In this document: piece by piece, positions 1-41,669 of the stretch
Layout: the number at the start of each line of letters is the position of its first letter
Numbering within the stretch: position 1 is the stretch's first letter
IMG/VR virus record: IMGVR_UViG_3300025119_000002
Source of the DNA: a virus
Strand: one strand, 5' to 3'
Length of the DNA: 41,669 nucleotides
Notes under the pieces: generated by a model
The model's database searches: none
The model's input: the letters and a program-made list of their open reading frames with translations, nothing else
Told to the model about the DNA's origin: nothing
Position numbers and translations under genes: made by a program

Positions 1-99
1 GATTCGCCTTACTGGAATCCCGACTGGACGGACCCGCGCCGCGCACCCGGAGGCGACTGGCGGCTACAGCGGCGACTCAATGAGGGCTTCCGGGCGCTC
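1..99. repeat. Terminal overlap, copy 1 (identical to 41571-41669)
   Basis: Base-by-base comparison of both contig ends. 99 nt is a common assembler k-mer length, which fits a circular-assembly overlap. Confidence 0.9.
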
Positions 100-192
100 G
101 CTTGCGGGGATGATGAGGACCTGTCTGACCGGACCCCGGAGGATAAGATTGCCGGGGGATTGCTGCCTGCGGATTGGGGGGATGAGCCGTGA
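1..192 (+). CDS. 3' part of a 65-aa hypothetical ORF that starts at 41565 and crosses the circular junction
   Basis: Frame 1 is open from base 1 to TGA at 190-192. It continues the ATG at 41565. Its stop overlaps the GTG start of the next gene (GTGA). Confidence 0.5.
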
Positions 193-794
193 AGAGCCTC
201 CGTGTTGAATTGCGCTTCAAAAACGCCGTGCTCTGGCAGGCCCTGTGGGATCGCTTCGGGAAGACGGCAAAGCTACTGCACGAAGGGTGCCCTGGGATGG
301 TATCACCGATCCCGGTTGCCGCGCAAGTCATAGGCATCTCCGCTGGGACTTTGCGCGAGCTGCTTCGCATGAGTATCTCCTCTTACAGGATTGACAATGG
401 GTACCCTACGCCACGCGCTTCCCGTATCGCTGATTTTTTTGATATGCCAGTTGCGGAATTATTCCCACTTGAACTCTACTCGCAGCGCTGGCCGAAACTC
501 TGCGCTTACCATGTCGATGCCGAGATGTTCTTGCCGCTCGAAGCGGCTCGGAATCTGACAGTGCCGCCGCCAGATGAACTGATTGATACCCAGTTGTGTA
601 TCGACAAAGCACTCCTTCGATTGTCCCCACGAGAGGAGAAAGTGATCCGCCAGCGCTTTGGTCTTGATGGTGAGGAGAAAACGCTTGAGGAACTCGGTCG
701 TGATCTAAATGTCACGCGCGAGCGTGTGCGGATGATCGAGGCGCGCGGATTAAGGCACTTGCGGAAACATAAGGCGCTTCTCGCTCTGAGGTGA
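189..794 (+). CDS. XRE-type HTH fused to a sigma-70 region 3.2/4-like domain (no region 2)
   Basis: The C-terminus [50 protein letters not shown] is a near-textbook RpoD region 4.2. The N-terminal [17 protein letters not shown]...[14 protein letters not shown] looks like a Cro/C1 HTH. GTG start preceded by a GGGGGGA run. Confidence 0.75.
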
Positions 795-1229: not shown

Positions 1230-1586
1230 ATGCTCCAGCCTGTCTCAGGGTCAGGGAACGCGCCACAGGGCCGAAATGGGCGCACCACGACCGCCAAGGG
1301 CTATGTCCGGCTCAAGGCCGGCCCCTTCCGCGACCACTACGAGCATCGGATCATTATGTGGGTTTCATTACAAATCTACTGCCCTGAATGGCTGGTGCCT
1401 CGACTGAATGGCGACGGTCTCCCCTCGGGGTTTCACGTCCATCACATCGACGGCCGGCGGGCGCACAATTGCCCGCAGAACCTCATGCTGCTCGATGCAA
1501 CGATCCACGACTACCTGACGCTGGAGGGGATCAGGCGGCGACGGCTGGCGCGACAACTGGAGACCCTGAGATGCCTGACGAATTAA
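1230..1586 (+). CDS. HNH endonuclease
   Basis: HVHHIDGRRAHNCPQNLMLLDATIH carries the H-N-H spacing. It is the last gene of the rightward arm. Confidence 0.85.
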   Translation: MLQPVSGSGNAPQGRNGRTTTAKGYVRLKAGPFRDHYEHRIIMWVSLQIYCPEWLVPRLNGDGLPSGFHVHHIDGRRAHNCPQNLMLLDATIHDYLTLEGIRRRRLARQLETLRCLTN

Positions 1587-7863: not shown

Positions 7864-8634
7864 CTAGTGGACGACGGTACCGAGGCTATAAGCCGTGTAC
7901 GCCTCGTTTCCTGAGTCCACCCGAGTCAAGCGCACCAGGAAGGTCTTGCTGTTGTTCTGGGCGATGGTCATGGTTCCGCTGTCGGTGCCTCCCGTACCAG
8001 ATGCCACCGTGATCGTCTCGGCGGCATCCGCTGTATTCCGAATCGTGAATGTGAAACTCGATCCGACAGTGGCCCCCGGCATAGCTGCTACAAGCAGCGC
8101 CGCCGTGGGCAAGGTATCGGTGCGCGCCCCTCCAGCCGGGTCACGGAGAATCAATCCGCTTAGAATCTGCCCAGCCGTCAGGGTCAGATTACCGGCCGTA
8201 GCCAGCGTAACCGGGAAGGTACTCGGGTAGAAGAGACTGGCGCTGTACTCCGAGCTGTAGCGGAATCCGCATTGGCCGAAACCGACGGCCCCTCCGCACG
8301 CGGCGAAGTTTTCATTAGGAGCCACCACTACAGGCATACCGTTGCCATGATTGGTAGCCCGTGTCCCGAATGCCCCCCGAATGATCCCGATGGTAGTACC
8401 GCTCACCGTGCGTACCCGGAGGAGCTCCCGCCCGATCTGAGCGACGGTCGTATTGGCCGTGAAGCCGGTGGCCGAAGCCACGCTCATCGACGTGTCGTCA
8501 GAATCGATGGCCGCTGACAGCGTGGTGACCGTGAAAGTGGGCTGCCCATAGGCCAAACCAGCCAAGAGCAGCAGGAGAATACCTTGCAATGTTGCCAGTT
8601 TCAGTTTTCTCATGGTCGTTTTCTCTTTCAGCAT
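7864..8634 (-). CDS. Predicted secreted beta-rich protein directly downstream of the coat gene
   Basis: The N-terminus MRKLKLATLQGILLLLLAGLAYG/QP is a classic Sec signal (basic n-region, hydrophobic core, A-x-G cleavage site). The start may be the internal ATG at 8613. Confidence 0.65.
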   Translation of the reverse strand: MLKEKTTMRKLKLATLQGILLLLLAGLAYGQPTFTVTTLSAAIDSDDTSMSVASATGFTANTTVAQIGRELLRVRTVSGTTIGIIRGAFGTRATNHGNGMPVVVAPNENFAACGGAVGFGQCGFRYSSEYSASLFYPSTFPVTLATAGNLTLTAGQILSGLILRDPAGGARTDTLPTAALLVAAMPGATVGSSFTFTIRNTADAAETITVASGTGGTDSGTMTIAQNNSKTFLVRLTRVDSGNEAYTAYSLGTVVH

Positions 8635-8640
8635 CCCCCG

Positions 8641-9867
8641 TTACGCCCCGAGCGCGCGAACCGCACAGTGGTCGGCATACAGATTGCCGAAGCCGATCAG
8701 CACGTCGAAGCGGTTGATCATCTTCGACTGTTGGCCGTCGAACATCCTGACGAACCGGATGGCGATTCCGGTCTGCGGGTCGCGAGTCTGGGATGACAAC
8801 TCCACTGCCTTGGGAGTCTCCAGCTTCACGCCCACGAGCGCAAAGGCATCCCGATGGATAGCCAGCCCATTGGTTCCGGCCTTGCCGTTTGGCGAGCTGG
8901 TGCCGGGGAACAACGTCAAGTCGGCGCCATTCGCGGGCAGTGCGCTCACGTTCTGGTATTGGCTGCCGGGCCCCACGATGGCCGGCTGGAACGTGATGGT
9001 CGCCGCCGAAGCCGCCGCCGTCACATCGGCAGTGATAACGAACTGCTTCAGCACGCCGGTCGAGCGCCGCGTTTTGGGGTTCACGTTGAAGACGCCGGCG
9101 ATGTTGAACACGTCACCCTTCAGGAACGTGTCTCCCGTAGTTGCGGTCAAAGCCAGTGAGCCACCGGATTGTCCGGCGCTGCTGGTCTCAACTGTGCTGG
9201 CCCATGTGCCGGCCGTGTGGCTGTAGAGCGACATCGACTCGGACCAATCAAAACCACGGGCGCGCCCGTAGTAGCCTTCCTTGAAGGCTTTGGAGATCTG
9301 CCCTTGGTCGTTGAACAGCGCGGTGCCGCCATTGACGATGCCGGTCATAGCCGCTGGTGAAATAATCAGGCTAAGCGGACCGGCCGGAACAGCGTTTTCC
9401 TTGAGTCGCTGGCGCGCCGAGCCAGCGAAGTTCGTAGTGGTTGGGTCGGTGCCGAGGATTCCGACGATGTTGTTGGTGTTCAGGTAAGCCCAGAGCGCCG
9501 CGCGAGAGTCGATTTCTTGCGCCAGTTGCGCCATGGCCGGGTCGATGTACTCCCGCTTGATGGCATCCATACCGCGCTCGGCGTGGAGCGCAGCTTCAAC
9601 CGAATCCCACTCGAAGTCAATTCCGAAAACCTGATCCACCGTCACAGTGGTATTCAGCCGGTTAATGGCCTGCGGCGAGTAGCCCAAGCCGTCTCGAACG
9701 GTGAAGCGTTGCGGCAGCTTCACACGCACTTGTTCACCGACCGCAAACTCTCGCGTGAACTCCTTGTTATAGTCGGTGTTGAACATCTCTGCCACTACCA
9801 ACTGGTTCAGCAGGGTCCGCAGGGACTCCATGGTGATCCAGTCTACGACTTTGAAAATGTTGGGCAT
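8641..9867 (-). CDS. Major capsid protein, P22-coat-like family
   Basis: 408 aa. The N-terminal pattern (LRTLLNQLVVAEMFNTDYNKEFTREFAVGEQVRVKLPQRFTVRDG) matches the P22-coat-like family as I remember it. It follows the scaffold gene. Confidence 0.85.
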   Translation of the reverse strand: MPNIFKVVDWITMESLRTLLNQLVVAEMFNTDYNKEFTREFAVGEQVRVKLPQRFTVRDGLGYSPQAINRLNTTVTVDQVFGIDFEWDSVEAALHAERGMDAIKREYIDPAMAQLAQEIDSRAALWAYLNTNNIVGILGTDPTTTNFAGSARQRLKENAVPAGPLSLIISPAAMTGIVNGGTALFNDQGQISKAFKEGYYGRARGFDWSESMSLYSHTAGTWASTVETSSAGQSGGSLALTATTGDTFLKGDVFNIAGVFNVNPKTRRSTGVLKQFVITADVTAAASAATITFQPAIVGPGSQYQNVSALPANGADLTLFPGTSSPNGKAGTNGLAIHRDAFALVGVKLETPKAVELSSQTRDPQTGIAIRFVRMFDGQQSKMINRFDVLIGFGNLYADHCAVRALGA

Positions 9868-18441: not shown

Positions 18442-19923
18442 TTACGACCACGGCCCTCCAGAAAAAGGAATGCGGCTAGCTTTTTGCGGGCGCGGCGGAG
18501 CGACCTTACGAGCAAACGTCAGCGCCAAGCCATCCGCATCGTCCGGGCTGCGCTCCCCGCGCTTGGTGAGGTCCTGCTTGGATTCGAGAACCAGCTTGTT
18601 TGATCGGTTCAGATGGTAGCCAGGCAGTCCGAGCTGGTAACTCAGTGGCTCCTCTTCAGGGATGGCGCCGATCAGCAGCCATTCCTTCATCGCATCCCAC
18701 ATATAGGCCCGCATGTTGGCTTGATGCTGGTTAGGAGAGTCGCCGCCAAAGTTGATTTCATGCACTTGCTGAAAGCCGAGCATGTGGAGGCGCTCGATGA
18801 TCGGAGAACCAAAGGCGGAATCGATAAACATGGCCGTGATCTTATGCTCTGGCCTTTGATCGGATAGAAGTTCGGCGAGTCTGCCTACCAGCAAACCTCG
18901 ATCATGTCGGATGGCCTCGCCCGGTATCCGTATGCGCGGGATAGTGCGGGCATCCATGCCACGACGGAAGAACACAACATTCCATGCGGCGCCGCCGCCA
19001 GAGACATCGACTCCGGCAATCAGAGGCTCTTCAGGAAGCACCCGGATCGGTCGGCGCATCGCTTGACGGATGCGTTGATGGTCGATGAACTGGAACTCAG
19101 ACGCAAGAGGAGGCAACCCCAGGACGCGCACGCGGACCCAATCCGAGTCTTCGCCGTAATCATGCAGCCACTCCTCGATCAGTTGCTTATTCGTAAAGCG
19201 CGAACTGCGACTGTCCAGAGTCCGGCGGTTCCAGCGCTCACTGTCTTTACCAAAGCAGATATTGTGGAACTCGCCGGTGTTACGCTCGGGCTGCCCCCAA
19301 GCGAAAAACATCGGCTCGCCGTCGGTCAGTCCCCCATAGGCAACCTGCCAGATCGTATCGGGGACAGCGCTTGCCTCATCAAACATGTACCATGACGTGC
19401 TGGTACGGGCGTGCTGGCCGGCGAAGCTCTGAGCGTTTTCCTCTTTGCACGTCTGCGCCACGATCTTCCAGTCGTTCGGGCTGCTCTTCGCGTAGATACC
19501 CGAGGCCATGACCTCAAACCAATGCGCAGTGATGGACAAGCGCACCCAGTACTGAATCGCCGACCAAGTACGTTCCTCAAGCTGCGTGGCCGTCCCAGCC
19601 GTAACCGTACCTGTCGAATAAGGCCGAGTGCTCAAAATCCAGCAAGCAATCCAGGCGCCCATCGCCGTTTTGCCGGTTCCATGTCCGCTCGAAGCCGCCA
19701 TGCGAATAGGCCGAACAGGATTCACGCCGTCGAATTTTCGCAGCACAACTTCGTGCCCCAATGCCCGCAGAAACTCTCGCTGATTATCGTCCGGACCTGT
19801 CTCGCTCTTGAGCGGACCGGGCTCCCCCCAGGGGAAGGCCATCATGACGAAGCCCAGGGGGTCCTCATAGTAGCGCTGGACCAGATCGGCTAGATCGAGG
19901 TGCGGATTGGTGGCGGCGGCCAT
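18442..19923 (-). CDS. terL: Terminase large subunit
   Basis: P-loop SSGHGTGKTAMGAW, Walker B WYMFDEASAV, and a C-terminal RNase-H-like nuclease region (AGVDVSGGG, MFIDSAFG). 493 aa. Confidence 0.9.
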   Translation of the reverse strand: MAAATNPHLDLADLVQRYYEDPLGFVMMAFPWGEPGPLKSETGPDDNQREFLRALGHEVVLRKFDGVNPVRPIRMAASSGHGTGKTAMGAWIACWILSTRPYSTGTVTAGTATQLEERTWSAIQYWVRLSITAHWFEVMASGIYAKSSPNDWKIVAQTCKEENAQSFAGQHARTSTSWYMFDEASAVPDTIWQVAYGGLTDGEPMFFAWGQPERNTGEFHNICFGKDSERWNRRTLDSRSSRFTNKQLIEEWLHDYGEDSDWVRVRVLGLPPLASEFQFIDHQRIRQAMRRPIRVLPEEPLIAGVDVSGGGAAWNVVFFRRGMDARTIPRIRIPGEAIRHDRGLLVGRLAELLSDQRPEHKITAMFIDSAFGSPIIERLHMLGFQQVHEINFGGDSPNQHQANMRAYMWDAMKEWLLIGAIPEEEPLSYQLGLPGYHLNRSNKLVLESKQDLTKRGERSPDDADGLALTFARKVAPPRPQKASRIPFSGGPWS

Positions 19924-25760: not shown

Positions 25761-25782
25761 AGGTCACAATGCCCTATGGGTC

Positions 25783-25788
25783 ATTATA
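25783..25788 (-). promoter_or_regulatory. Perfect TATAAT hexamer without a recognisable -35, about 25 nt upstream of the first late gene
   Basis: Minus strand reads gtggtgTATAATgacccat. The hexamer 17 nt upstream is GGGTAG. Confidence 0.25.
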
Positions 25789-25835
25789 CACCACAATCGC
25801 CCGTCCTACCCTCCGGCTCAGGCCAGCGCCGGGAG

Positions 25836-25860
25836 GCCCCGTCTGACCCGAACACGGGGC
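25836..25860 (-). terminator. 7-bp GC hairpin at the early/late junction (no U-tract)
   Basis: GCCCCGT-11 nt-ACGGGGC, nested inside a second pairing between CCCTCCGG (25809-25816) and CCGGAGGG (25882-25889). Confidence 0.3.
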
Positions 25861-25901
25861 ATAGTGCGGCGGCTTAGGAGGCCGGAGGGCAGGACGCGGG
25901 A

Positions 25902-26183
25902 CTAGTGCGGTAGCAAATCAGGCGCTAACAGGCGCACCAGATTGCGGGCTTCCTGTATTTCATAGCATGTGCACTCACCGTCACCGCCAGTGATATCGCA
26001 CGGCTCACAGTGGCCAGATGCGATCATTAACGTGTAGTTCCAGCAGCCGGTACAGACATACTGCCCATCGGCTGTTACCAATTGTGAATTCTCTAAGTTT
26101 CTTAGTCCTGCCATGTACCGAGCACCGCATTTGCAAGCTCTAATGTCGGTGTCACAAGCCAAGTAAAGTCCTACTGTGTCCAT
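25902..26183 (-). CDS. Cys-rich small hypothetical protein
   Basis: 93-aa ORF with 12 Cys in CxC/CxxC arrangements. Confidence 0.55.
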   Translation of the reverse strand: MDTVGLYLACDTDIRACKCGARYMAGLRNLENSQLVTADGQYVCTGCWNYTLMIASGHCEPCDITGGDGECTCYEIQEARNLVRLLAPDLLPH

Positions 26184-27985: not shown

Positions 27986-28014
27986 ACTATACCGCAAGGG
28001 GAATAGAATGTCAA
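27986..28014 (-). promoter_or_regulatory. Sigma70-type promoter: TTGACA-17-TATAGT
   Basis: Minus strand reads tttctcTTGACAttctattccccttgcggTATAGT, with -35 at 28014-28009 and -10 at 27991-27986. It lies upstream of 27615..27953. Confidence 0.7.
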
Positions 28015-28285
28015 GAGAAATCTTCGTCTAAGCGCAAGAATGTGTCTAGTAGTACTGCGAGACCAGGCATACCGTGAGTCATGGTACTAGGGCGCGCAGA
28101 CTGGTGGAAGCAGAGAAGCAGAGGTCCCGCAGGAAAGTCTTGCAATCTCTAAACTACAGGCGTAGTGTAGGTAGGGTCCTGGTAGTTTTGGCCCTGCACA
28201 AGGCGGTCTGTAGTACGCGCGCGCCGTGGGTCTGGGCGATAGCCGCAAGCGGAGATTCCTAAAATGCTCCGGGGTAAGGTGGGGT

Positions 28286-29261: not shown

Positions 29262-29651
29262 TTATCCGCCGCCCGATCCACTCCGCGACTTGCGGGATGC
29301 CGTCATCGCCACCTGTCGTCTTCGGCCAGCAGACCGCATTTCTTTAGCACATCTAGGGGAGCAGCACTTCTGTCTCTTTCTCTTTCGGGGATTTGCAATA
29401 AATGATTGCCCACAGTTCCAACATGTCTTCAAATCAGGGTATTTCTGCTTGTGCAACCTGATGTGTGGACCAGCCCCAAGTACCTGGAGGTTCTCTATCC
29501 GGTTGTCCAGAGGGTTTCCGTTTATGTGATGAACGTGCTCGTATGCGCTGAGCTTCCTGCCAAGATACTGCTCTATAATCCAACGATGGGCACGTACTTT
29601 CCGCCCATCCCGCCAAATTAACCGCGTCCTTGTATGTTTACTACGAGCCAT
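29262..29651 (-). CDS. HNH endonuclease with a C-terminal Cys cluster
   Basis: YEHVHHINGNPLDNRIENLQVLGAGPHIRLH. It overlaps the 3' end of the methyltransferase gene by 11 nt. Confidence 0.85.
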   Translation of the reverse strand: MARSKHTRTRLIWRDGRKVRAHRWIIEQYLGRKLSAYEHVHHINGNPLDNRIENLQVLGAGPHIRLHKQKYPDLKTCWNCGQSFIANPRKRKRQKCCSPRCAKEMRSAGRRRQVAMTASRKSRSGSGGG

Positions 29652-34416: not shown

Positions 34417-34446
34417 AGTATACCCGCACGGGAAGTAGAATGTCAA
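34417..34446 (-). promoter_or_regulatory. Leftward switch promoter: TTGACA-18-TATACT
   Basis: Minus strand reads gtcTTGACAttctacttcccgtgcgggTATACT, with -35 at 34446-34441 and -10 at 34422-34417. Confidence 0.65.
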
Positions 34447-34498: not shown

Positions 34499-34693
34499 AT
34501 GGAGTTGATCTCGACCAAGGATGCCGCCTTGCGCATGGACCTGTCCCCCCGCCGCATCCGGCAGTTTATCGAAGATGGCCGGTTGCCGGCACAAGCCATC
34601 GGGGGCCGCTTTGCGATCCGCCCAGGGGACCTTCTCCGGCGTCGGATAGCCAAGCGAAAGAACGGTCGTCCGCGTAAGTCTCTGAAAACATAG
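34499..34693 (+). CDS. Excisionase/MerR-family HTH protein (Cro-like position)
   Basis: MELISTKDAALRMDLSPRRIRQFIEDGRLPAQAIGGRFAIRPGDL matches the HTH_17/Xis-type pattern. It is the first rightward gene. Confidence 0.7.
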   Translation: MELISTKDAALRMDLSPRRIRQFIEDGRLPAQAIGGRFAIRPGDLLRRRIAKRKNGRPRKSLKT

Positions 34694-34708
34694 AGAGAAA
34701 GATTTCTC

Positions 34709-34738
34709 TTGACAATTCTATTCCCATTGGGGTATAGT
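34709..34738 (+). promoter_or_regulatory. Sigma70-type promoter: TTGACA-18-TATAGT
   Basis: tttctcTTGACAattctattcccattggggTATAGT, followed by GGAGG and the uORF ATG. Confidence 0.7.
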
Positions 34739-34755
34739 TGTGTCTGGAGGCTGCG

Positions 34756-34809
34756 ATGATGAAGCGACCGACCATCAAGGCGCTCCGCGAGTTTGAGGAG
34801 TATCCATGA
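34756..34809 (+). CDS. 17-codon uORF, a truncated duplicate of the 5' end of 35405..35566
   Basis: MMKRPTIKALREFEEYP. GGAGG lies 5 nt upstream. Its TGA overlaps the ATG of the next gene (ATGA). Confidence 0.35.
   Translation: MMKRPTIKALREFEEYP
34759..34801 (+). repeat. 43-nt direct repeat, copy 1 (39/43 identical to 35405-35447)
   Basis: atgaagcgaccgaccatcaaggcgctccgcgagtttgaggagt versus atgaagcgaccgaccactaaggcactccgcgagttcgaggagt. Confidence 0.85.
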
Positions 34810-35393
34810 CCAACGCTGCCCTGTTGAGCTTGCTAAAGCGAAAAAAGGCCTGTCCTGAGGCCGTCGCGTGGGTTGGTACGCGAGACCTGGTCACAGCTTG
34901 GCGCGAGTGCGAACGAGCTGATTGGATGCTATGGTTTTGTGGAATTATGGCAGGCACGAAGAACTGGCCGACATGGCAACAAGTGGTGCTTGTAATGTGC
35001 ACCTGTGCTCGGCAGGCATTGCGGTTTGTGCCGGCTGGAGAAAACCGTCCACTTGCTGCAATCGAAGCCGCTGAAGTGTGGGCAAAAATGCCTACTACCG
35101 GGGCCGCCGCCAGGGCCGCCGGGGCCGCCGGGGCCGCCGAGGCCGCCGCCGGGGCCGCCTGGGCCGCCGCCGGGGCCGGCAGGGCCGCCTGGGCCGCCGC
35201 CGGGGCCGCCGGGGCCGCCGGGGCCGCCAGGACCGCCAGGGCCGGCTGGGCCGCCTGGGCCGCCGAGGCCGCCGCCAGGGCCGCCTGGGCCGACGGCGTG
35301 GCCGACTGGGCCGCTGGCGAGGCCGCCGGACACAAGATTCTGGCTGATTTGGTGCGAAAATTGATCCCTCGAATTACAGACTGCAAGAAATAA
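34806..35393 (+). CDS. Cys/Trp-containing helical N-domain followed by an Ala/Gly/Trp repeat protein
   Basis: The N-domain (KKACPEAVAWV...CERADWMLWFC...CARQALRFVP...AIEAAEVWAK) continues in frame into AAGAAGAAEAAAGAAWAAAGAG... and a normal C-terminus (ILADLVRKLIPRITDCKK). Confidence 0.65.
   Translation: MTNAALLSLLKRKKACPEAVAWVGTRDLVTAWRECERADWMLWFCGIMAGTKNWPTWQQVVLVMCTCARQALRFVPAGENRPLAAIEAAEVWAKMPTTGAAARAAGAAGAAEAAAGAAWAAAGAGRAAWAAAGAAGAAGAARTARAGWAAWAAEAAARAAWADGVADWAAGEAAGHKILADLVRKLIPRITDCKK
35098..35330 (+). repeat. 9-nt periodic GC-rich tract (GGG/GCC/GCC-type units)
   Basis: Read directly: ggggccgccgccagggccgccggggccgccggggccgccgaggccgcc... Five of the six frames are ORFs in the supplied track. 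Confidence 0.85.
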
Positions 35394-35404
35394 TCGGTGC
35401 GGAC

Positions 35405-35447
35405 ATGAAGCGACCGACCACTAAGGCACTCCGCGAGTTCGAGGAGT
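35405..35447 (+). repeat. 43-nt direct repeat, copy 2
   Basis: See copy 1. This copy is the intact 5' end of the 53-aa gene. Confidence 0.85.
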
Positions 35448-35903: not shown

Positions 35904-36194
35904 ATGAAGAAGAACACTTACGTTATCGTCCGCACCTATAGTGCGGGTGTATTTGCCGGTATTCTGAAGTCCCGCAAAGGACAAGAAGTCATCCTGCTCA
36001 ATGCCCGCCGACTTTGGTATTGGTCCGGAGCGGCGACTCTATCGGAATTGAGCGTCTCCGGGGTAAAGCATCCAGACAAATGCAAATTCCCCGTGTCTGT
36101 ACCGAATGTGACGCTATTACAAGCCATCGAGATTCTGCCATGTTCGGCAAGCGCCCGTAAGAGTATTGAGGAGGTTCCCATATGGAGAGTGTGA
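35904..36194 (+). CDS. Hypothetical protein (conserved phage family, function unknown)
   Basis: AAGGAG SD and ATG at 35904. The sequence is well-behaved (VIVRTYSAGVFAGIL...ARRLWYWSGA). Confidence 0.65.
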   Translation: MKKNTYVIVRTYSAGVFAGILKSRKGQEVILLNARRLWYWSGAATLSELSVSGVKHPDKCKFPVSVPNVTLLQAIEILPCSASARKSIEEVPIWRV

Positions 36195-36418
36195 TCTGCT
36201 CCGGCTACGGCTCCGGCTACGGCGACGGCTCCGGCTCCGGCTACGGCTCCAGCTACGGCGACGGCGACGGCTCCGGCGACGGCTACGGCCACGGCGACGG
36301 CTCCGGCGACGGCTCCGGCTACGGCCACGGCTCCGGCTCCGGCCACGGCGACGGAGACGGCGACGGCTCCGGCTACGGCTACGGCTACGGCGACGGCGAC
36401 GGCTACGGGCAATCCTGA
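36182..36418 (+). CDS. Gly/Tyr/Asp/Ser low-complexity protein (78 aa)
   Basis: GAGGAGG lies 7 nt upstream of the ATG at 36182. Its TGA overlaps the ATG of the exonuclease gene (TGATG). Confidence 0.5.
   Translation: MESVICSGYGSGYGDGSGSGYGSSYGDGDGSGDGYGHGDGSGDGSGYGHGSGSGHGDGDGDGSGYGYGYGDGDGYGQS
36195..36412 (+). repeat. 6-nt periodic tract (GGC-TAC / GGC-TCC / GGC-GAC units)
   Basis: Read directly: ggctacggctccggctacggcgacggctccggc... Two forward frames and one reverse frame are ORFs in the track. Confidence 0.85.
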
Positions 36419-37065
36419 TGCCAACCCCTAAGCGAGGCTATTTCCTCGCTGACGGCGCTCGCGTGCCGGGAGTGACTACGATCCTGGGGCGATTCAAGGA
36501 TATGGGCGGGTTGCTCCATTGGGCGTGGGAAGAAGGGTGCGCCGGGCGGGACTACCGCGAGACGCGAGATGCGGCGGCTGATGCAGGTACTCTTGCTCAC
36601 GCAATGGTCGAGGCGAAAATTCGCGGTAAGCGCTTCGTCGTCCCCGAGGATACGCCCCCCGAGATTAGAAACAAAGCCTGTCAAGCCTACTCTATGTATA
36701 ATGAGTGGGCCACGCAAACAAGACTTCAACCGCTGGTAACCGAAGTGCAGTTCGTCTCGGAACAACATCGTTTTGGCGGGACTTTGGACGTGGTTCTCGT
36801 AGGCGGCAGGCGGCTACTAGGCGATTGGAAAACTTCCGGCGCGATTTACACCGAGCACCTGCTACAGCTTGCGGCCTACGACATCCTGTGGAAAGAAAAC
36901 CGGCCTGCTGAGCCGATCGAGGGCTATCAGATTGTGCGATTCAGCAAGGAGGAGGCCGATTTCGAGCAGCGATATTTCATGCAACTTGATGTTGCCGAGG
37001 AAATGTTCCTGCTCCTGCGCCGGGCATACGACCTGGATAAGAAAGTCCGAAAGAGAGTGAGGTAA
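36418..37065 (+). CDS. PD-(D/E)XK (RecB/Cas4-like) exonuclease
   Basis: GTLAHAMVE, GGTLDVVLV, LGDWKTSG and LLQLAAY motifs in the canonical order. Confidence 0.8.
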   Translation: MPTPKRGYFLADGARVPGVTTILGRFKDMGGLLHWAWEEGCAGRDYRETRDAAADAGTLAHAMVEAKIRGKRFVVPEDTPPEIRNKACQAYSMYNEWATQTRLQPLVTEVQFVSEQHRFGGTLDVVLVGGRRLLGDWKTSGAIYTEHLLQLAAYDILWKENRPAEPIEGYQIVRFSKEEADFEQRYFMQLDVAEEMFLLLRRAYDLDKKVRKRVR

Positions 37066-38358: not shown

Positions 38359-38692
38359 CCCGAAGGATAGCCTGCTGATCGAGGCTGACCTGGAGAAGCA
38401 AGTCTTCGCCTTCCTCCGCGAGAAGCAGTGGCGAATTGTTCGCCATCGGCCAACGGGAACACGTGGGCACCATCGGTACCTGGGAGAAAAGAACGCTGCC
38501 GATGCTTTGATTATCCGGCCGACTAGCGTTGGCTATCTTCAAGGCTTCTTCCTGGAACTCAAGAGACCCGGTCAAAGACCGACACTTGGGCAACTGAAGT
38601 GGATGGCGGATCGAGAGCGCGAAGGTTACAGGACAACCTGGGTCGATAACCTCAAACAGTTCCGAATCTGGTACTGGAGGCAGCTCTACTGA
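38333..38692 (+). CDS. VRR-NUC domain nuclease
   Basis: EADLEKQVFAFLREKQW...AADALII...FFLELKRPGQRPTLGQLKW...GY matches the VRR-NUC D...E-x-K layout. Confidence 0.7.
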   Translation: MPKRLPRIDPKDSLLIEADLEKQVFAFLREKQWRIVRHRPTGTRGHHRYLGEKNAADALIIRPTSVGYLQGFFLELKRPGQRPTLGQLKWMADREREGYRTTWVDNLKQFRIWYWRQLY

Positions 38693-38928
38693 TGCCCTTG
38701 CCCATGTCTCGCTCACAACAACGAGTCTTCGCTGAAGTTGTCCGCTACTTCCAGGAGCAGGGGCGTTCGCCGAGCATTGCCGAAATCGCACAGCGATGCG
38801 ATTGGTCCCTGAATTACATCACGCTGGTTTTACGTGCACTCGAAAAGAAAGGCTGGCTCCGGCGCACGGTGGGAGAGTATCGGTCGATTGTGCTGATAGA
38901 GACAACTGAGTTGCGAGCGCGAGATTGA
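38692..38928 (+). CDS. LexA N-terminal DNA-binding-domain-like protein (no peptidase domain)
   Basis: SRSQQRVFAEVVRYFQEQGRSPSIAEIAQRCDWSLNYITLVLRALEKKGWL parallels E. coli LexA residues about 5-60 ([32 protein letters not shown]...HLKALARKGVI). Confidence 0.75.
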   Translation: MPLPMSRSQQRVFAEVVRYFQEQGRSPSIAEIAQRCDWSLNYITLVLRALEKKGWLRRTVGEYRSIVLIETTELRARD

Positions 38929-39636: not shown

Positions 39637-39665
39637 TTGACACGGGCTGCAAGATGGCGGATAAT
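39637..39665 (+). promoter_or_regulatory. Sigma70-type promoter: TTGACA-17-GATAAT
   Basis: ttttctcTTGACAcgggctgcaagatggcgGATAAT, upstream of the DUF1376 replication gene. Confidence 0.6.
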
Positions 39666-41568: not shown

Positions 41569-41669
41569 GTGATTCGCCTTACTGGAATCCCGACTGGACG
41601 GACCCGCGCCGCGCACCCGGAGGCGACTGGCGGCTACAGCGGCGACTCAATGAGGGCTTCCGGGCGCTC
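41565..41669 (+). CDS. 5' part of the junction-spanning 65-aa ORF (continues at base 100 after removing the overlap)
   Basis: The ATG at 41565 overlaps the previous stop (ATGA). The frame runs to the contig end and resumes in frame 1 at base 1. Confidence 0.5.
   Translation, partial: MSDSPYWNPDWTDPRRAPGGDWRLQRRLNEGFRAL
41571..41669. repeat. Terminal overlap, copy 2 (identical to 1-99)
   Basis: Same comparison as copy 1. Confidence 0.9.

Follow-up and report, generated by a model that had tools for sequence, protein, structure and literature searches.

An XRE-type helix-turn-helix domain joined to a housekeeping-type σ70 region 4 in a family of phage proteins that probably redirects host transcription

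The viral record IMGVR_UViG_3300025119_000002 of IMG/VR, a stretch of 41,669 nucleotides (nt) analysed in full and called the window below, carries a plus-strand gene for a protein of 201 amino acids (aa) that joins a helix-turn-helix (HTH) domain of the λ-repressor/XRE type, through a flexible linker, to a near-consensus housekeeping σ70 region 4, with no domain for recognition of the −10 element. An earlier note, made from the letters of this DNA, had proposed just this fusion and had added that no characterised fusion of an HTH domain to σ region 4 was known. The architecture holds and is strengthened at the level of a whole protein family, and the statement on novelty is consistent with our searches of databases and of full-text literature, the latter of which returned no description of an XRE–region 4 protein; the architecture, with its conserved N-terminal arm, thus appears to be undescribed in the databases and literature searched. 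Judged from its sequence, the protein is not a σ factor on its own, since without region 2 it cannot bind the β′ clamp or melt the −10 element, and the family probably redirects host transcription.

A σ region 4 in a protein without regions 2 and 3

By homology, the C-terminal module is a bona fide housekeeping-type σ region 4. The Pfam model Sigma70_r4 matched aa 141-193 (E=2.6e-16; score 59.3 bits, cut-off 24.1 bits), the NCBIfam models RpoD, RpoS, SigA and MzaA matched the protein solely via their C-terminal 55-75 residues, and PHROG 351 (sigma factor) matched by its C-terminal part alone. The best sequence matches in the PDB were structures of isolated σ region 4 (1tty, 1ku3/1ku7, 4g6d, 2p7v), together with region 4 in holoenzymes, and a comparison by hhalign of the family profile with a profile of 38 primary σ factors aligned aa ~130-201 alone (Prob 99.4%, E=8.5e-22). 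This member is 56% identical to residues 548-600 of E. coli σ70 and, when mapped onto the C-terminal σ70 sequence, keeps the equivalents of R554, E555, R562, F563, G564, T572, L573, E574, R584, E585, R586, R588, R596, L598, R599 and L607, with Met at the position of Q589. The AlphaFold2 (AF2) model contains the four helices expected of region 4, at aa 134-142, 147-156, 166-173 and 177-192. A GerE/LuxR-type effector domain was rejected as the identity of this C-terminal HTH, given that the GerE profile matched 2 of 64 full-length relatives, both weakly, whereas Sigma70_r4 matched 64 of 64, with E-values down to 4e-20. The peptide from which the earlier note had recognised a nearly consensus housekeeping region 4 in the last 60 residues lies at aa 145-194, inside this module.

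No such homology was found for the other σ domains. Sigma70_r2 and Sigma70_r3 gave no match in the protein even at E<=10; among the 64 relatives, Sigma70_r2 was not one of the 25 most frequent of the 39 Pfam families that matched, and Sigma70_r3 appeared weakly in two (E=0.019). Neither model occurred in the complete list of Pfam matches of 40 isolated N-terminal domains, and the N-terminal family profile aligned with primary σ factors at a Prob of 3.6% (P=0.012). The earlier note had seen nothing resembling region 2 upstream of region 4, and profile searches likewise found no bona fide region 2 in the N-terminal half of the protein, among the listed families of its relatives or in their N-terminal domains. 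Its assignment of “region 3.2”, in contrast, has to be withdrawn: in the profile-profile alignment the σ homology starts at about aa 129-130, and the linker that precedes it has no detectable homology. This linker is modelled with low confidence (predicted local distance difference test, pLDDT, of 43-56 over aa 100-130) and, at 23% mean pairwise identity, varies more than any other segment of the family, with the exception of an [FIL]L[PS]L motif (FLPL, aa 114-117).

A σ domain hidden upstream or across the genome ends was ruled out. Five in-frame stop codons lie 5′ of the GTG at 189, so that no N-terminal σ part is concealed there, and the open reading frame (ORF) that wraps around the genome ends, which encodes 65 aa, is in a different frame. 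In support of the GTG start itself, homologues have their first residue at this position (MK[SD]LRVELRFKN), the identical protein (P0001) is present among gene calls in public metagenomes, and the stop codon of the 65-aa ORF overlaps the GTG start as GTGA, which suggests that the two genes are translationally coupled. A hidden Markov model of primary σ factors run against all six-frame ORFs of the genome found this region 4 and otherwise one weak match, at 38692-38928; we rejected the latter as a second σ-like gene, since it encodes a winged helix of the LexA_DNA_bind family (E=1.2e-10).

An XRE-type domain and a conserved N-terminal arm

As judged from profile comparison and structure modelling, the N-terminal ~100 residues are a λ-repressor/XRE-type HTH domain that is too divergent for the Pfam thresholds. 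The N-terminal family profile aligned over helices 2-5 with six XRE proteins (434 Cro, 434 cI, P22 C2, λ cI, SinR and CylR2) at a Prob of 92.7% (P=4e-7). For aa 1-100, AF2 modelling from 40 N-terminal domains gave a pLDDT of 86.8, and the top Foldseek matches of this model in the PDB were all of the XRE fold, namely λ cI fragments, C.BclI, EspR, CylR2, SinR, 434 Cro, HigA and ClgR. These matches are weak (E-values of 0.1-1, target-normalised template modelling score up to 0.6), and no σ domain was among the top 50. In Pfam, HTH_3 gave no above-threshold match to the N terminus of this protein; among the 40 N-terminal domains it was found in three (best E=0.015), and Xre-like-HTH and HTH_26 in two each. 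The Cro/C1-type assignment of the earlier note was nevertheless right, because both the hhalign comparison with XRE proteins and the Foldseek matches lead to the same fold.

The modelled helices span aa 13-30, 41-48, 52-59, 75-84 and 88-91, and the domain carries the motifs G[VI]...L..LLNL..SPY and ELFPxxLY. With XRE regulators such as λ cI, 434 Cro, CylR2, SinR and the C-proteins it shares the five-helix arrangement and an A..IA..LG....EeLF motif; it differs from them in scoring below the HTH_3 threshold, in a long loop between helices 3 and 4 with a conserved SPY, in the fused region 4 and in an additional arm at the N terminus. With the consensus DLRxELRxKN(A/N)xLW, in which R5, E7, R9, N12 and L15 hardly vary or do not vary at all, this arm has a mean pairwise identity of 59%, whereas the σ4 module reaches 44% and the remainder of the XRE domain 32%. 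At the start of XRE helix 3, residues vary across the family.

A family of phage-like proteins

A profile search of 1.84 billion cluster representatives returned 382 clusters (50% identity) at E<=1e-30, nearly all of them full-length at 190-230 aa. The family thus comprises at least 382 clusters of ~200-aa proteins that share the XRE–region 4 architecture, most of them on phage-like metagenomic contigs. Ten clusters that we looked up had no informative name, one being labelled “RNA polymerase primary sigma factor”, and neither Pfam nor NCBIfam holds a model for the architecture. Searches of the INPHARED phages (tblastn, three members) found no family member: the matches were of region 4 to true σ factors or came from bacterial contamination, and one apparently full-length match proved to be a bacterial primary σ factor. 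No member was found in BFVD either, where the structural matches were short stand-alone region 4 proteins of 71-142 aa from uncultured phages. The C-terminal extensions of longer family members (305-387 aa) contain no Pfam domain and were uninformative.

The loci that we examined are phage-like arrays of early, replication or nucleotide-metabolism genes, with DNA polymerase A/uracil-DNA glycosylase, MT-A70, SNF2 helicase, ThyX and integrase genes as neighbours, and early/replication operons carry the family gene at their distal end, both here and in five other loci. A conserved partner gene beside it was not recovered, since the downstream neighbours in two other loci (L001, L004) are not homologous to the ORF at 801-1226 of the window. 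Relatives also occur in contigs of metagenome-assembled genomes (MAGs) labelled Vicinamibacterales, Gammaproteobacteria, Parcubacteria, Peribacteria and Magasanikbacteria, labels that cover Acidobacteriota, Gammaproteobacteria and lineages of the candidate phyla radiation (CPR); an earlier genome scan had given no relatives. One of them, a 270-aa relative at 7989-8801 of a 513-kb contig (L018) in a Gammaproteobacteria-labelled MAG, has cellular neighbours, among them a class II ribonucleotide reductase, purD and pilin-like genes.

In the course of this work we also encountered two metagenomic proteins, P0121 (938 aa) and P0262 (1722 aa), that contain 9-12 tandem copies of σ70 region 4 and are unrelated to the XRE–region 4 family; in P0121, Pfam Sigma70_r4 matched in nine stretches (E=1e-75).

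Conservation pattern of region 4

The region 4 modules of the family are on average 52% identical to residues 548-600 of E. coli σ70 and 44% identical to one another, and their variation is therefore centred on the housekeeping consensus. In the 64 full-length relatives, the residues kept at σ70-equivalent positions include F563 (F or Y, 59/64), G564 (63/64), R586 (61/64), Q589 (56/64), L598 (58/64), R599 (59/64), H600 (44/64), P601 (51/64), R603 (42/64) and L607 (54/64). Positions that read bases vary, R584 being Arg in 17 and E585 being Glu in 37 of the 64, while the tail RKLRHPSR..L, which does not contact DNA, stays σ70-like across the family. Region 4 of σ70 reportedly docks on the β-flap-tip helix (Kuznedelov 2002 and Geszvain 2004, as cited in PMC7948647). 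The pattern suggests selection on the surface that faces RNA polymerase, with −35 specificity free to drift, and so leans toward engagement of RNA polymerase by the family.

The gene in its operon and the promoters of the genome

The window begins and ends with the same 99 bp (41571-41669 = 1-99), and the phage genome is therefore complete, circular or terminally redundant, with a length of 41,570 bp and 58% G+C. The XRE–region 4 gene lies near the end of a plus-strand block of early genes (Table 1), and the nearest σ70-type promoter upstream of it is that at 39637, 2.1 kb away. This promoter probably drives an operon that runs from the replication protein through the RNase H-like protein, the 128-aa and 65-aa ORFs and the XRE–region 4 gene to the 141-aa protein and the HNH endonuclease; we infer that the gene belongs to this transcript. 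The 65-aa ORF is also called as a gene in two related loci (L002/L003) and matched no family in PHROG and Pfam scans. Neither a phage RNA polymerase nor another σ factor was detected, either with the primary-σ profile over six frames or in the ~30 ORFs scanned with PHROG and Pfam. The phage depends wholly on the host RNA polymerase, and the XRE–region 4 protein, encoded late in an early operon, would be expressed from promoters of the host type.

The early promoters have near-consensus −35 and −10 elements, whereas the junction ahead of the virion genes has a TATAAT alone. The sequence CTCTTGACA, which contains the −35 hexamer, occurs exactly four times in the genome, against about 0.24 occurrences expected by our estimate from base composition; three of the four sites are followed by a good −10 element, and the fourth strong promoter carries GTCTTGACA instead. 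A repeat search identified a 45-bp cassette common to 34694-34738 and 27986-28029 (minus strand), and in the former a perfect palindrome, AGAGAAAGATTTCTCT (34694-34709), abuts or overlaps the −35 element of the rightward promoter. On the minus strand, the early genes are followed by a 141-bp gap (25761-25901) and then by the genes for virion and packaging, which include that of the large terminase subunit (18442-19923). The only TATAAT in this gap is that at 25783-25788.

Table 1. Coordinates of the XRE–region 4 gene, its domains and other features of the window
Feature	Position	Strand	Description
XRE-HTH::σ-region-4 gene	189..794	+	201 aa, GTG start, TGA stop; ORF listing
N-terminal arm/helix	189..236	+	aa 1-16; most conserved segment of the family; alignment
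λ-repressor/XRE-type HTH domain (predicted)	237..479	+	aa 17-97; AF2, Foldseek, hhalign
Linker	480..593	+	aa 98-135, ~40 aa, predicted disordered
σ70 region 4 (4.1 + 4.2), housekeeping type	594..773	+	aa 136-195; Pfam, RpoD models, PDB, hhalign, residue map
65-aa ORF, 3′ part	1..192	+	ATG 41565 to TGA 190-192; spans the 99-bp terminal overlap/genome junction
Exonuclease	36166	+	plus-strand block; PHROG/Pfam
LexA-N-like winged HTH	38692	+	plus-strand block; PHROG/Pfam
DUF1376 primosomal-like	39555	+	plus-strand block; PHROG/Pfam
RNase H-like	40298	+	plus-strand block; PHROG/Pfam
128-aa ORF		+	plus-strand block, continued; followed by the 65-aa ORF and the XRE–region 4 gene
141-aa protein		+	plus-strand block, continued
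HNH endonuclease	1230-1586	+	plus-strand block, continued
Promoter 39637	39637..39665	+	CTCTTGACA-17-GATAAT, −35 TTGACA; σ70-type, 11/12 matches in promoter scan
Promoter 34709	34709 (first base of −35)	+	TTGACA, spacer 18 nt, TATAGT
Rightward early cassette	34694..34738	+	palindrome AGAGAAAGATTTCTCT overlapping TTGACA-18-TATAGT; candidate target
Promoter 34446	34417..34446 (34446 = first base of −35)	-	GTCTTGACA-18-TATACT, −35 TTGACA; leftward early; candidate target
Promoter 28014	28014 (first base of −35)	-	TTGACA, spacer 17 nt, TATAGT
TATAAT without −35 hexamer	25783-25788	-	GGTGTATAAT, 22 nt before ATG 25760 of the first virion/packaging gene; candidate late promoter

A proposed role as a region 4 mimic

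Given these findings, we tentatively favour, at somewhat less than even confidence, a reading in which the protein is a mimic of region 4 that competes with the host σ factor at the β-flap and/or at TTGACA −35 boxes, with the XRE domain as its tether. We favour it because the protein has a constrained region 4 without a region 2, brings its own XRE reader, is encoded in an early operon of a phage that depends on the host RNA polymerase, and has precedents among phage proteins that target the flap. It would then be a transcription-switch factor of the middle phase, with the XRE reader and the housekeeping region 4 connected by the flexible ~40-aa linker. The host σA holoenzyme would first transcribe the gene from early promoters of the TTGACA type. 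Its region 4 module would next compete with host σ region 4 for the β-flap tip and/or the TTGACA boxes, turning down −35-dependent promoters of the host and of the early phage genes. Finally, the XRE domain and the conserved arm would tether the complex to a phage-specific DNA site, so that RNA polymerase with host σ region 2 might be favoured at promoters without a −35 element, such as the TATAAT before the virion genes. The net effect would be a “sigma appropriation” within a single polypeptide. Of the two modes of action that the earlier note had put forward, a −35 decoy or repressor and a β-flap competitor or appropriator, both are plausible. The analysis establishes the domain composition of the protein, its lack of a region 2, the family with its conservation pattern and the place of the gene in the genome, and from these we infer flap binding, DNA targets, timing and the direction of regulation.

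A more specific version, which we consider doubtful, holds that the phage region 4 displaces that of the host from the flap and yields a hybrid holoenzyme of host regions 2/3 and phage region 4, while the XRE domain and the arm read a phage-specific upstream element. The precedents for the region 4 mimic as such are that the σ4/β-flap interface is a favoured target of phages and that displacement of σ4 switches RNA polymerase from −10/−35 promoters to −35-independent ones (gp39, PMC3950348; AsiA/MotA, PMC6755090). Without σ4, moreover, the holoenzyme fails on lacUV5 but retains part of its activity on an extended −10 promoter (PMC7948647).

Several observations weigh against the region 4 mimic. 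The late TATAAT reads GTG-TATAAT, without the canonical TGn of an extended −10 element, and no repeated late-promoter motif was found, the repeat search of the genome having returned the early promoter cassette alone. The claim of the earlier note that a TATAAT without a −35 element precedes the late genes is borne out at 25783-25788 as a single site. Read-through from the same-strand promoters at 34446 and 28014 could by itself account for transcription of the late genes. The T-rich, CTC-containing context of TTGACA also recurs at promoters of a distant 103-kb phage (L009), whose family member has an N terminus 35% identical to this one; because the same flank thus accompanies a very different N-terminal domain, it is more likely a feature of host promoters than an operator of the XRE–region 4 protein, and the candidacy of CTCTTGACA as a specific operator is weakened. 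Of the conserved TTGACA context that the earlier note had ascribed to every early promoter, the near-consensus hexamers and the fourfold CTCTTGACA stand, while the strong promoter with GTCTTGACA and the recurrence in L009 qualify it. Moreover, operator-like sequences could belong to two other regulators of this phage, an HTH_17 protein and the LexA-N-like protein. At the protein level, conservation of hydrophobic positions is no proof of flap binding, because the same residues build the region 4 fold; the full-length AF2 model has a predicted template modelling score of 0.43, with an inter-domain geometry that is not confident; and the relative in L018 has no obvious prophage around it and a degenerate region 4 tail that has lost the RKLRHPSR motif. 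As regards a late-promoter motif, an exact 16-mer scan of IMG/VR gave chance matches, and a search for relatives of the first late gene returned none.

Alternative explanations

The main rival is a plain two-HTH, sequence-specific DNA-binding regulator without contact to the β-flap, in which region 4 serves as a DNA-binding domain in the way of GerE/LuxR effector domains and which recognises a bipartite operator that includes a TTGACA-like half-site, acting as a repressor through occlusion of the −35 element or as a classical activator. This is possible, although we regard it as rather unlikely. Both parts of the protein have DNA-binding folds, crystal structures of isolated σ4 on −35 DNA exist (the PDB matches include 1ku7 and 1rio), and the protein from this phage retains R584, E585, R586 and R588, through which σ70 reads the −35 element; in addition, the three strongest early promoters share about 45 bp that include a perfect TTGACA. 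Across the family, however, it is the base-reading residues of region 4 that are least conserved, while positions away from DNA stay σ70-like, and GerE is as rare among the members as described above. The TTGACA flank, moreover, is the same in phages whose XRE domains differ greatly, and no composite site is repeated besides the promoters themselves.

It is improbable that the protein is one half of a split σ factor whose region 2 function is supplied by a separate phage protein. In Bacillus subtilis, SigO and RsoA are reported (MacLellan et al. 2009) to form such a two-subunit σ factor, in which RsoA provides the region 2-like function, and T4 gp55 with gp33 would be a comparable pair. Like SigO, the phage protein has a region 4 without a recognisable region 2; it sits in an operon of small ORFs without assignment, one of them translationally coupled to it, and most early ORFs belong to no family, so that a very divergent region 2 protein could be hidden among them. 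SigO differs in needing RsoA and in lacking an XRE domain, and no such partner was detected in this genome with the primary-σ model, which over the six-frame ORFs returned this region 4 and the unrelated LexA-like winged HTH. Nor did the roughly 30 scanned ORFs match a σ factor, gp55 or gp33 in PHROG, and the genes directly downstream at other loci show no homology to their counterpart in this genome.

We think it very unlikely that the protein is a decoy that titrates factors binding region 4, such as anti-σ factors, class II activators or Rsd-like proteins, without touching RNA polymerase or promoters: the patch contacted by activators and anti-σ factors (equivalents of σ70 K593-R603, RKLRHPSR) is strongly conserved in the family, but a decoy would leave the fused, well-conserved XRE domain and the invariant N-terminal arm unexplained, and no candidate partner was found.

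Least credible of all is a complete, very divergent small σ factor whose N terminus is a degenerate region 2/3 with core binding and −10 melting retained, for although BLASTP against a real primary σ factor spans aa 8-192 (placing RFKNAVLW opposite FSTYATWW of region 2.3), phmmer alignments to RpoS reach back to aa 67 (67-193) and hhalign sets the HTH opposite that of region 3.1, the upstream parts of these alignments carry no significant score, the BLASTP and hhalign alignments differ in register, the full-length profile aligns region 4 alone, the XRE comparison is better by five orders of magnitude, and neither the confident AF2 model nor the N-terminal Pfam scan contains a σ domain; an identity of the N terminus with σ regions 2.3-3.1 was rejected on these grounds in favour of XRE.

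Comparison with known systems

AsiA, gp39, gp33, gp67 and P7 are unrelated small phage proteins that attack the σ4/β-flap interface. To our knowledge, no characterised flap-targeting phage protein reuses region 4 itself in fusion with a second DNA-binding domain. Searches of Pfam, PHROG, PDB and BFVD gave no sequence or fold homology to AsiA-MotA, gp39 or gp33, and the XRE–region 4 protein is a σ-derived phage transcription factor that belongs to none of the described flap-targeting families.

Housekeeping σ70 factors of groups 1 and 2 (RpoD/SigA/RpoS) are its closest relatives in the C-terminal 60 residues, which are homologous to regions 4.1/4.2 and conserve −35-reading and flap-facing positions, while the phage protein lacks regions 1.2, 2, 3 and a detectable 3.2 and has an XRE-type HTH at its N terminus. 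With the T4 pair AsiA and MotA (PMC6755090, PMC2988021) it would share a logic, in which host region 4 is neutralised or replaced, a new DNA reader acts near −30/−35 and host region 2 uses the −10 element, as well as a function in the middle phase of infection. Here, in contrast, a copy of σ4 would do the work of a σ4-remodelling protein, and both activities would share one chain. The middle-gene product gp39 of Thermus phage P23-45 binds the β-flap, disables −35 recognition and shifts RNA polymerase to −35-independent promoters (PMC3950348), and the genome studied here has a similar dichotomy of promoters; gp39, however, is not σ-like and has no DNA-binding domain, and the late TATAAT lacks the canonical TGn.

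A free region 4 module is not unprecedented, since Iyer et al. described “minimal” single-HTH σ factors and gp33 orthologues in (group-2) jumbo phages (PMC7824862) and since BFVD holds the stand-alone proteins mentioned above. Along with T4 gp33, these are phage HTH proteins of the region 4 type that dock on the β-flap, yet none has an XRE domain or a conserved N-terminal arm, and gp33, which lacks DNA binding, acts together with gp55 and the sliding clamp.

Further features of the genome

Several other elements lie close to the promoters discussed above. The space from the leftward early genes to the first virion gene is taken up by a nearly perfect stem-loop of 111 nt (25794-25904, minus strand; minimum free energy −68 kcal/mol, z=-4.0, equalled in stability by 0 of 200 shuffles), which ends just 5′ of the TATAAT. 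It matches no Rfam family, and the lack of a U-tract sets it apart from classical terminators; possible roles are those of an attenuator, a processing site, a regulator-binding site or a packaging signal. Adjoining the late junction upstream, a 93-aa Cys-rich ORF (25902-26183, minus strand; CxC...CxxC...CxxC...CxC) has no Pfam or PHROG match and possibly encodes a zinc ribbon. Between the divergent early promoters lies a 64-aa HTH_17 (excisionase/MerR-like) gene (34499-34693, plus strand; Pfam E=1.9e-6) with a promoter-like site of its own, TTGCAT-18-TACACT at ~34463; it ends exactly where the palindrome AGAGAAAGATTTCTCT begins, and its product and the palindrome are a candidate pair of early regulator and operator. 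The protein encoded at 38692-38928 (plus strand, 78 aa) consists of a LexA-type N-terminal winged HTH alone, without a protease domain, and is the third DNA-binding regulator encoded by the phage.

The window holds two HNH endonuclease genes, that of Table 1, which ends the operon of the XRE–region 4 gene and is convergent with the last tail gene, and another at 29262-29651 (minus strand). Within an early ORF, 35056-35338 consists of tandem repeats, about 19 copies of a 9/12-nt unit of the GGGCCGCCG type that encode a collagen-like Gly/Pro-rich or an Ala/Gly-rich sequence, depending on the strand, and about 14 copies of a 12/18-nt unit occupy 36162-36443 at the 5′ end of the exonuclease-like ORF. 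Two 50-nt stretches (34752-34801 and 35398-35447) are 86% identical and both encode MKRPTIKALREFEE-like N termini, an indication that the rightward operon opens with a pair of small paralogous genes. The window contains no tRNA and no Rfam match. In the distant phage L009 (10647-12018), the family gene is followed directly by a strong TTGACA-18-TACACT promoter and a 390-aa ORF that, by eye, is putatively TnpB-like of the IS200/IS605 type.

Implications

The label “RNA polymerase sigma factor” that this family now carries is a mis-annotation and would distort counts of phage-encoded σ factors. Even if the protein is a two-HTH repressor, a large family without annotation, of at least 382 clusters at 50% identity, has been defined. 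If the family engages RNA polymerase, a σ domain can function in trans, and promoter specificity would be modular, combining a −10 reader from the host with a −35/flap module and an XRE reader from the phage; such a protein would also be a compact, programmable tool for rewiring bacterial promoters. Should the hybrid holoenzyme exist, it would define a new class of promoters while −35-dependent host and early promoters are silenced simultaneously, and it would be a natural case of σ region 4 acting in trans, across phages with relatives in MAGs of several phyla, CPR included.

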